24,834 bases of DNA, taken from positions 1 through 24,834 of IMG/VR virus record IMGVR_UViG_2563366939_000004. One strand, written 5' to 3'. Source of the DNA: a virus. Lineage: Duplodnaviria; Heunggongvirae; Uroviricota; Caudoviricetes. Positions 6,372 through 6,525 of this stretch are shown piece after piece. The notes under the pieces were generated by a model. It saw only the letters and a program-made list of their open reading frames with translations. It did not search any database and was not told the origin of the DNA. Position numbers and translations under genes: made by a program. Position 1 is the first letter of the stretch, and each line of letters begins with the position of its first letter.

Positions 6372-6446
6372 TGGAGCGGGTAGCGGGAATCGAACCCGCA
6401 TCATCAGCTTGGAAGGCTGAGGTAATAGCCATTATACGATACCCGC
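6372..6446 (-). tRNA. tRNA-Gly (anticodon UCC), glyT-like
   Basis: Hand-folded cloverleaf: acceptor GCGGGTA/TACCCGC, anticodon stem TCAGC/GCTGA with loop CTTCCAA, T-arm GCGGG-TTCGATT-CCCGC, 3' CCA encoded. Confidence 0.85.
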
Positions 6447-6449
6447 ATA

Positions 6450-6525
6450 TGGTGCCGACTACCGGAATCGAACTGGTGACCTACTGATTACAAGTCAGTT
6501 GCTCTACCTACTGAACTAAGTCGGC
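6450..6525 (-). tRNA. tRNA-Thr (anticodon UGU)
   Basis: Hand-folded cloverleaf: acceptor GCCGACT/AGTCGGC, anticodon stem ACTGA/TCAGT with loop CTTGTAA, T-loop TTCGATT (one A-C mismatch in T-stem), 3' CCA encoded; 3 nt from tRNA-Gly. Confidence 0.8.

Follow-up and report, generated by a model that had tools for sequence, protein, structure and literature searches.

Why does a lambdoid prophage carry two transfer RNA (tRNA) genes, separated by only 3 nucleotides (nt), between its late antiterminator gene and its holin gene, from where were they acquired, and what purpose might they serve? The question is raised by the IMG/VR virus record IMGVR_UViG_2563366939_000004, of which positions 1 to 24,834 were analyzed as one stretch (in the following, the window), and by the genes for tRNA-Thr(UGU) and tRNA-Gly(UCC) located therein. 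The analysis favors, with a probability of about 0.65 for the explanation as a whole, a functional two-gene tRNA cassette of a Rac-family lambdoid prophage that occupies the slot between Q and the lysis genes, originates from a host operon, and serves codon supply.

Two intact tRNA genes between the Q-like gene and the holin gene

The locus comprises the following features, given in the order of transcription.

6879-7541, minus strand: Q-like late antiterminator open reading frame (ORF) of the DUF1133 family (PF06576, E = 1.7e-105; PF06530, Phage_antitermQ, weak match of 26.4 bits)
6450-6525, minus strand: tRNA-Thr(UGU), 76 nt, CCA encoded (ARAGORN and Rfam RF00005)
6447-6449, minus strand: 3-nt spacer from the CCA of tRNA-Thr to G1 of tRNA-Gly, TAT in sense orientation, UAU in the RNA
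6372-6446, minus strand: tRNA-Gly(UCC), 75 nt, CCA encoded (ARAGORN and Rfam RF00005)
5381-5596, minus strand: S21-type (pin)holin, first gene of the lysis cassette, start at 5596 (PF04971, E = 1.2e-34; MKSMDK dual-start motif)

ARAGORN, applied to the entire 24.8-kb window, detected exactly two tRNA genes. With the Rfam covariance model RF00005 (gathering score, 29 bits), tRNA-Thr reached 69.1 bits (E 2.2e-13) and tRNA-Gly 65.6 bits (E 2e-12); for comparison, the host genes thrU and glyT scored 73.8 and 64.9 bits, respectively. Both tRNAs feature an intact acceptor stem of 7 base pairs (bp), a normal 7-nt anticodon loop with U33 and a purine at position 37, the T-loop UUCGAUU, and an encoded CCA end. 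Specifically, tRNA-Thr has the acceptor stem GCCGACU/AGUCGGC, the anticodon loop CUUGUAA, and A73-CCA, and tRNA-Gly has GCGGGUA/UACCCGC, CUUCCAA, and U73-CCA. Threonyl-tRNA synthetase recognizes the identity elements G1:C72, C2:G71, G35, and U36, and glycyl-tRNA synthetase recognizes U73, G1:C72, C2:G71, G3:C70, C35, and C36. All of these positions are as in host thrU and glyT, substitutions being confined to position 11 in tRNA-Thr and to pair 6:67 in tRNA-Gly. Both genes are real, intact, host-derived tRNA genes.

An earlier description of the locus, made from the letters alone (the sequence-only reading), had given the positions of the two genes, their anticodons, the 3-nt spacing, and the context between Q and holin, all of which agree with the ARAGORN, Rfam, and Pfam results; it had not given the strand, which is minus. 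The low covariance scores or disrupted acceptor stem that it had named as signs of pseudo-tRNAs were not found. It had also taken a mismatched T-stem pair in tRNA-Thr as a possible sign of divergence or decay. The mismatch, A52.C62, belongs to host thrU itself, which has the identical sequence at this site, and decay is therefore not supported; the low diversity across copies described below likewise speaks against it. A pseudo-tRNA or decaying gene is thus ruled out by the scores, by the pairing-keeping nature of the changes, and by this low diversity.

The Q-like ORF, the tRNA pair, and the holin gene all lie on the minus strand, i.e., the late strand, the pair being located 353 nt past the stop codon of the Q-like ORF and 775 nt before the holin gene. 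This position is the lambdoid late-region cargo slot between the Q antiterminator and the lysis genes. Since DUF1133 homologues in RefSeq comprise approximately 180 amino acids, the true start of the Q-like ORF is probably near 7420. Downstream, the holin gene, whose homologues are annotated as essD in the RefSeq records of related prophages, is followed by genes for lysozyme and then Rz. The window represents a Rac-family lambdoid prophage integrated beside ttcA; it aligns to prophages in many complete Escherichia coli genomes over 90 to 96% of its length with approximately 96% identity. The annotation of these homologous prophages lists intR, xisR, ralR, recET, kilR, sieB, ydaSTUV, hokD, DUF1367, DUF1364, DUF1133, two tRNAs, essD, lysozyme, Rz, trkG, and terminase. 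At 21075-23297, approximately 15 kb from the tRNA pair, lie the integrase and the ttcA junction. Unlike in Stx phages, no toxin genes were found in the window.

Relationship to the host genes thrU and glyT

The tRNA-Thr gene is identical to thrU of E. coli K-12 at 75 of 76 positions, the sole change being C11>U, by which the D-stem pair C11:G24 becomes a U11.G24 wobble. The tRNA-Gly gene is identical to K-12 glyT at 73 of 75 positions and carries a compensatory exchange in the acceptor stem, C6:G67 to U6:A67. In the host, thrU and glyT belong to a single operon, thrU-tyrU-glyT-thrT-tufB, and occur there in the same order as in the phage pair. The TAT spacer of the phage pair corresponds to the T that immediately follows thrU, joined to the AT that immediately precedes glyT in the K-12 operon, which would be weakly compatible with a clean deletion of tyrU together with the long spacer. 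The host comparison was made base by base; a MAFFT alignment of the operon had paired glyT with tyrU and contained no alignable flank.

The resemblance of tRNA-Gly to chromosomal glyT, which the sequence-only reading had noted, is hence borne out. Its suggestion that host tRNA genes had been captured now extends to tRNA-Thr, which it had not compared, and is strengthened because thrU and glyT share one operon in matching order, with the TAT junction as a further point of agreement. As judged from these sequences, capture of the pair from the host thrU-tyrU-glyT-thrT operon is supported.

Distribution of the cassette and its relatives

Two surveys were performed. A 301-nt query centered on the pair, required to match with at least 80% coverage, was found in 174 of 5426 complete E. 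coli genomes, with a best identity of 99.0% and with tRNA-Thr and tRNA-Gly annotated by RefSeq. A pattern spanning the Thr-Gly junction retrieved the fused pair from at least 120 contigs of IMG/VR; all IMG/VR counts given here and below are counts among the matches listed. Among species-representative genomes, the pair occurs in E. coli (3 copies), Shigella flexneri (3 copies), Escherichia ruysiae, Citrobacter braakii, and Enterobacter hormaechei; a match in a 423-bp low-coverage Corallococcus contig most likely represents contamination. Sequenced phages with the pair include vB_EcoS-683R6, JLK-2012, PhiR47_1, and phi467. The Stx2f phage phi467 carries the same Thr-Gly cassette between stx2f and the holin gene S, in line with the earlier remark that Stx phages harbor tRNAs and toxin genes at this position, and an LT-IIb prophage (KU052038) contains two copies of the cassette.

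The copies vary little. The spacer is TAT in 116 of 120 copies, tRNA-Thr is identical to thrU in 69 of 118, and tRNA-Gly is identical to glyT in 54 of 119. The C11>U change of tRNA-Thr is unique to the window, being present in none of 118 Thr copies, and the U6:A67 allele of tRNA-Gly occurs in about 50 of 120 copies, 37 of which are identical to the tRNA-Gly of the window; two further Gly copies show the intermediate U6.G67. The other common compensatory variant is A49:U65 in the T stem. Changes at positions 42 to 44 of tRNA-Thr (GU>CC or UC; contigs L009, L014, L029, L039, and L118) break pairing of the 3′ strand of the anticodon stem and are absent from the window.

Besides two-gene cassettes (50 loci), four-gene cassettes were identified in 62 loci; these consist of an ileX-like Ile2(CAU) gene, a phage-type Arg(UCU) or Lys(UUU) gene, and then Thr and Gly. 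The third slot is filled by one homologous phage-type body, with the anticodon UUU (Lys) in 40 cases and UCU (Arg) in 14; examples are L008 for Arg UCU and L009 for Lys UUU, tRNA-Lys(UUU) being the main target of PARIS AriB and PrrC. Some thrU-derived bodies with switched anticodons were also observed: one with UCU (Arg) at L126:1122-1197, in the first of the two cassette copies of the LT-IIb prophage KU052038, and others with UUU (Lys) in the IMG/VR contigs L071 and L115; apart from the anticodon, these bodies are still thrU-like.

A holin gene lies downstream in 89 of 96 informative loci. The upstream neighbor varies and was a DUF1133-type Q gene in 30 cases, another Q type in 9, a DNA methylase gene in 16, stxB in 1, and none of the queries in 39; what stays constant is the link to the beginning of the lysis cassette, not to one Q type. 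In literature searches, the exact Thr-Gly pair was met only in a passing mention, for phi467, in the VT2f phage paper (PMC5189129), and tRNA genes downstream of Q in SfI, Sf6, ST64T, PS3, and P21 have been described together with an ACA bias (PMC3636060). The pair is a common phage cargo that is already known and annotated in entries of RefSeq and GenBank; what the analysis adds in a small way is the origin from a single operon, the conserved promoter with its covarying leader hairpin, and the anticodon-switched relatives elsewhere.

Candidate promoter and leader hairpin

Three elements precede the tRNA-Thr gene.

6632-6757, minus strand: AT-rich stretch upstream of the cassette promoter
6589-6616, minus strand: candidate sigma-70 promoter, -35 TTGCGA at 6616-6611, 16-nt spacer, -10 TATCAT at 6594-6589
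6529-6581, minus strand: leader hairpin with outer stem GGUUCU/AGAACC, 2x2 GA/GA internal loop, G-rich inner stem, and variable apex

The candidate promoter scored 9 of 12 in a consensus scan. An element of the form TTGnnn-16-TAWYAT, ending 6 to 8 nt before the hairpin, is present in 32 of 32 distinct two-gene leaders, otherwise unrelated classes included. We infer from this conservation that the cassette has its own promoter and that transcription begins near 6582. In other cassette classes, too, the promoter is preceded by homologous AT-rich stretches, and the stretch at 6632-6757 may, by its sequence, act as a region similar to an UP element. The promoter was also considered as a Q-dependent pR′, in which TATCAT would be a sigma-dependent pause element; this is disfavored, as the cassette's promoter and leader are likewise found behind methylase genes and behind stx2f, at places with no Q gene next to them.

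The hairpin is separated from tRNA-Thr by AAU (6528-6526) and folds with -20.4 kcal/mol (z = -2.5). Its architecture was predicted in 30 of 32 leader variants, with an outer stem of 6 bp across the family (GGUUCY/RGAACC), the sixth pair of which varies (C-G, U-A, or U.G); in a single locus, Watson-Crick pairs take the place of the GA/GA loop. In an alignment restricted to the arms, 86% of cells are paired versus at most 67% in slid registers, 8 of 12 pairs are changed on both sides, and 0 of 500 shuffles were as good; note that the arms were picked by register, which favors structure somewhat. No Rfam family matched the hairpin at gathering or permissive thresholds. In the IMG/VR contig L076, a 13-nt tandem duplication (CGGTGATATCGCT) in the apex lengthens the stem, i.e., the apex tolerates insertions. 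The four-gene cassettes do not possess the hairpin; their promoter abuts the first tRNA gene and has a GC-rich discriminator. The idea that the hairpin is what remains of the two upstream tRNAs of such cassettes was discarded, as only short, unconvincing resemblances were seen (GGTTC..GAG, ACCAAT), and so was that of a CCA-ending minihelix, whose CC would be consumed by the helix. According to the model, the hairpin would form the 5′ end of the primary transcript, and the simplest guess as to its role is that it protects the 5′ end of the precursor.

Sequence constraint on the cassette

Nucleotide diversity was calculated for 16 copies sharing the flanks of the window (12 distinct), leaving out bases fixed by the search pattern. 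Values were 0.008 for tRNA-Thr, 0.006 for tRNA-Gly, 0.018 for promoter plus leader, and 0.03 to 0.12 for the flanks; the diversity of the tRNA genes is thus 4 to 15 times below that of the flanks. Beyond this set, copies identical to the host genes persist although the flanks are unrelated between classes, and the fused pair with the same spacer recurs in flank classes that are unrelated to one another, with several Q types, and in several genera.

These values bear on the view that the pair is a neutral or decaying passenger, i.e., a piece of the host operon that entered the prophage by illegitimate recombination and hitchhikes in a cargo hotspot without having a function. The interval between Q and S is indeed a known hotspot for cargo, with stx, LT-II, and trkG nearby, Rac-family prophages are often defective, scattered single IMG/VR copies have stem-breaking changes or have lost the CCA, and C11>U is private to the window. 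A passenger is, however, hard to reconcile with tRNA genes that diverge so much less than their flanks, with the recurrence of the same fused pair and spacer in such different surroundings, and with a promoter and leader that are conserved and covary; moreover, the common variants U6:A67 and A49:U65 are compensatory, and the T-stem mismatch is native to thrU. We therefore consider a passenger without function unlikely.

Codon usage

Codon usage in the prophage ORFs of the window (5295 codons) was compared with that in 40 housekeeping genes of K-12 (15080 codons), and the 61 codons were ranked by enrichment.

AGA: 9.4-fold, rank 1 of 61
AUA: 4.3-fold, rank 3 of 61
ACA: 3.7-fold, rank 4 of 61, with the largest absolute excess
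GGA: 2.1-fold, rank 9 of 61

The enrichment of ACA and GGA, for which the sequence-only reading had proposed to look, is thus present. AGA, AUA, ACA, and GGA are the codons read by the four-gene cassette, AGA and AUA by its two extra tRNAs. For a related full prophage, the late genes showed a 2.2-fold enrichment of ACA and a 1.9-fold enrichment of GGA, and the early genes 3.8- and 2.6-fold, respectively. The Thr(UGU) and Gly(UCC) species are encoded by single-copy genes and of low abundance in the E. coli host. Judged from these sequence data, the cassette probably assists the translation of codons seldom used in E. coli core genes.

Terminators and proposed expression of the cassette

Two terminator-like elements enclose the cassette.

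6758-6799, minus strand: intrinsic terminator and candidate tR′, approximately 80 nt past the stop codon of the Q-like ORF, 13 pairs and a T run (terminator scan, strong terminator at 6799-6768)
6240-6272, minus strand: terminator-like hairpin with a T run, approximately 100 nt past tRNA-Gly (terminator scan)

The first of these is co-conserved with the Q gene in 29 loci and is likely tR′, considering the analogous layout of SfI, in which Q is followed by a promoter, a short RNA, a terminator, and then directly by the tRNAs. It also forms the end of a subthreshold match (6764-6830, minus strand; 35.4 bits versus 54 needed) to STnc370, an enterobacterial small RNA (sRNA), and the element at 6764-6830 may represent the short pR′ transcript plus tR′ of this Q type. 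A consensus scan for pR′ found no convincing hexamers between the Q stop codon and the post-Q terminator. As for the second element, the trailer after tRNA-Gly has a fold z score of -2.9 and follows the Gly gene in 38 loci; the cassette's own transcript probably ends at the hairpin at 6240-6272.

We propose the following sequence of events. An enterobacterial thrU-tyrU-glyT-thrT operon would have lost tyrU and the long spacer, leaving thrU and glyT 3 nt apart. In the lysogen, the cassette would be transcribed from its own sigma-70 promoter, TTGCGA-16-TATCAT, starting near 6582, into a precursor of approximately 340 nt comprising the stable hairpin, tRNA-Thr, UAU, and tRNA-Gly and ending at the terminator near 6250. 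Each tRNA would be released at its 5′ end by RNase P, and the 3-nt spacer would be removed by exonucleases down to the encoded CCA. During lytic growth, Q-modified polymerase would also transcribe the cassette, as expected from its location on the late strand, past Q and the probable pR′/tR′ and before S-R-Rz, and would read through the terminator-like sites at 6272-6251 and 6007-5992 to the holin gene. The products would double the gene dose of the two tRNA species reading ACA and GGA.

Several observations weigh against a functional, host-derived cassette for codon supply. The private C11>U change costs 4.7 bits of model score and could be mildly deleterious or a sequencing error. A match of the TAT junction is expected by chance in roughly 6% of cases, by our own estimate with any split of the 3 nt allowed, and no homology to the host operon was seen in the flanks beyond the mature tRNAs. 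The high conservation could result in part from gene conversion by host thrU and glyT instead of selection. Two further terminator-like sites intervene between the cassette and the holin gene. Lastly, the codon enrichment lacks specificity: it largely tracks the low G+C content of the prophage, and it is stronger for AGA and AUA, which no tRNA of the prophage reads, than for ACA and GGA.

A possible role in counter-defense

Codon supply could also be secondary. The cassette might in the first place replenish tRNAs that are destroyed or blocked by immune effectors, such as PARIS AriB or toxSAS enzymes like FaRel2. AriB cleaves the Lys(UUU), the Thr(UGU), and the Asn(GUU) tRNA, and phage tRNAs rescue infection (PMC12409363), whereas FaRel2 pyrophosphorylates tRNA-Gly and tRNA-Thr, which it selects via the acceptor-stem pairs 1, 2, 4, and 5 (PMC11559606). 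Lambdoid cassettes do carry the targeted species, namely, Thr(UGU) and Gly in the window, Lys(UUU) in 40 of the 62 four-gene cassettes, and Asn(GUU) plus Thr(UGU) in SfI and P21 (PMC3636060); furthermore, the five IMG/VR copies changed at Thr positions 42 to 44 are altered beside the AriB cut site 40|41, and the Gly allele of the phage differs from that of the host in the acceptor stem. The details of the window do not fit well, however. The anticodon stem-loop of its tRNA-Thr is identical to that of thrU, including the AriB site U36-A-A-U-C|A41, and would therefore be cut like that of the host tRNA. The change at 6:67 in tRNA-Gly is not a FaRel2 determinant, pairs 1, 2, 4, and 5 being unchanged, and FaRel2 originates from a Firmicute. 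No substitutions at recognition or cleavage sites of AriB or FaRel2, as would be expected of nuclease-resistant tRNAs of the T5 type, were found in the Thr and Gly genes of the window. Over half of the copies, as the analysis counts them (69 of 118 for Thr and 54 of 119 for Gly), are identical to the host genes and could thus provide extra supply only, not resistance. We regard anti-defense supply as the principal role as improbable.

A broader form of this idea, which we consider quite doubtful, is that the Thr-Gly cassette and its four-gene Lys(UUU) relatives are primarily a counter-defense module, that the leader hairpin is a functional RNA, and that the switched thrU bodies are a source of new isoacceptors. 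If it were true, the cassette would top up tRNAs removed by PARIS-type nucleases and by toxSAS enzymes that read the acceptor stem, the hairpin with its GA/GA loop would, for example, stabilize the precursor or bind a factor, and the anticodon-switched thrU bodies (UCU, UUU) would constitute an ongoing source of isoacceptors.

For many phages and islands, tRNA genes serve as integration sites, and partial tRNA copies are then left at the ends of these elements. An att-site relic or a recombination target for mobile elements in place of expressed genes, for which integration of SfI at thrW (PMC3636060) could be cited, is nevertheless so improbable that it can be dismissed on position and completeness alone, given that both tRNA genes are of full length, lie approximately 15 kb from the integrase/ttcA junction inside the late region with no integrase adjoining, and share the same internal position before the holin gene in 89 of 96 loci.

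Other elements of the window

A full-length but subthreshold match to the sRNA STnc100 is located downstream of the cassette at 5981-6175 on the minus strand (25.9 bits versus 47 needed). The element contains a conserved CGGGAGGCACCCG motif and ends at the terminator 6007-5992; in 38 related loci it lies downstream of the cassette, whose upstream side in L004 bears a related piece. Further features are as follows.

5600-5745, minus strand: short G+C-rich hairpin run just 5′ of the holin start, with several CATCTG-like loops
2828-4303, minus strand: trkG, potassium transporter gene in the late region, between Rz and the ParB-like/terminase genes
20576-20754, minus strand: RalA antitoxin sRNA (220 bits), adjoining ralR, type I toxin-antitoxin RNA
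8927-9097, minus strand: sok antisense RNA (101.5 bits), adjoining the Hok/Gef ORF at 8774-8929, type I toxin-antitoxin RNA

The hairpin run at 5600-5745 may be connected to S21 dual-start control. With a G+C content of 38% and an extreme use of rare codons (AUA, 35 per 1000), trkG is clearly a foreign cargo gene.

Comparison with the host operon and with other phage tRNA sets

The finding itself is routine, and the correction of the decay reading and the tracing of the pair to one host operon are points of modest use. The phage alleles, Gly U6:A67 and Thr U11, are distinguishable from those of the host, so that tRNA sequencing could directly measure expression of the prophage tRNAs. In addition, the cassette family holds target species of PARIS and toxSAS and hence offers a natural system for weighing codon supply against counter-defense in temperate phages.

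The cassette resembles the host operon in the mature sequences, the Thr-then-Gly order, the encoded CCA, and the A52.C62 mismatch of thrU. It differs by the lack of tyrU, of the 116-nt spacer, and of thrT and by its nonhomologous flanks. Whereas the host operon has a promoter with a GC-rich discriminator and lies upstream of tufB, the phage cassette has a different promoter and a structured leader and resides in the late region of a prophage.

Reports of lambdoid tRNA genes located between Q and the lysis genes go back to phage 21 and the Stx phages. Stx phages of the 933W type, which carry the cluster ileZ-argN-argO, use the same slot past Q and before the lysis genes, on the late strand, for tRNAs that read host-rare codons; there, however, the tRNAs adjoin toxin cargo, while the window has no toxin genes and contains Thr-Gly instead of Ile2(CAU)-Arg(UCU). 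The four-gene cassettes join the Ile2-Arg type and the Thr-Gly set. The Stx2f phage phi467 has the same fused Thr-Gly pair with both genes identical to host thrU and glyT (73.8 and 64.9 bits). Phage 21 and SfI possess a tandem Asn(GUU)-Thr(UGU) pair between Q and an S21-type holin gene, for which an ACA bias was reported (PMC3636060). The Thr gene of SfI is not thrU-like and has Asn as its partner, not Gly as in the window, and, unlike the cassette described here, the SfI pair abuts the post-Q terminator and has neither a promoter of its own nor a leader hairpin. In the clusters of T4 and T5, tRNA genes likewise lie a few nucleotides apart, are processed from multimeric precursors, and include Thr(UGU) and Gly(UCC); the T4-type genes are, however, only approximately 84% identical to those of the window, and T4 and T5 are virulent phages whose tRNAs have diverged from those of the host. 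Finally, the tRNAs of T5 resist AriB (PMC12409363), whereas those of the window are essentially host alleles.

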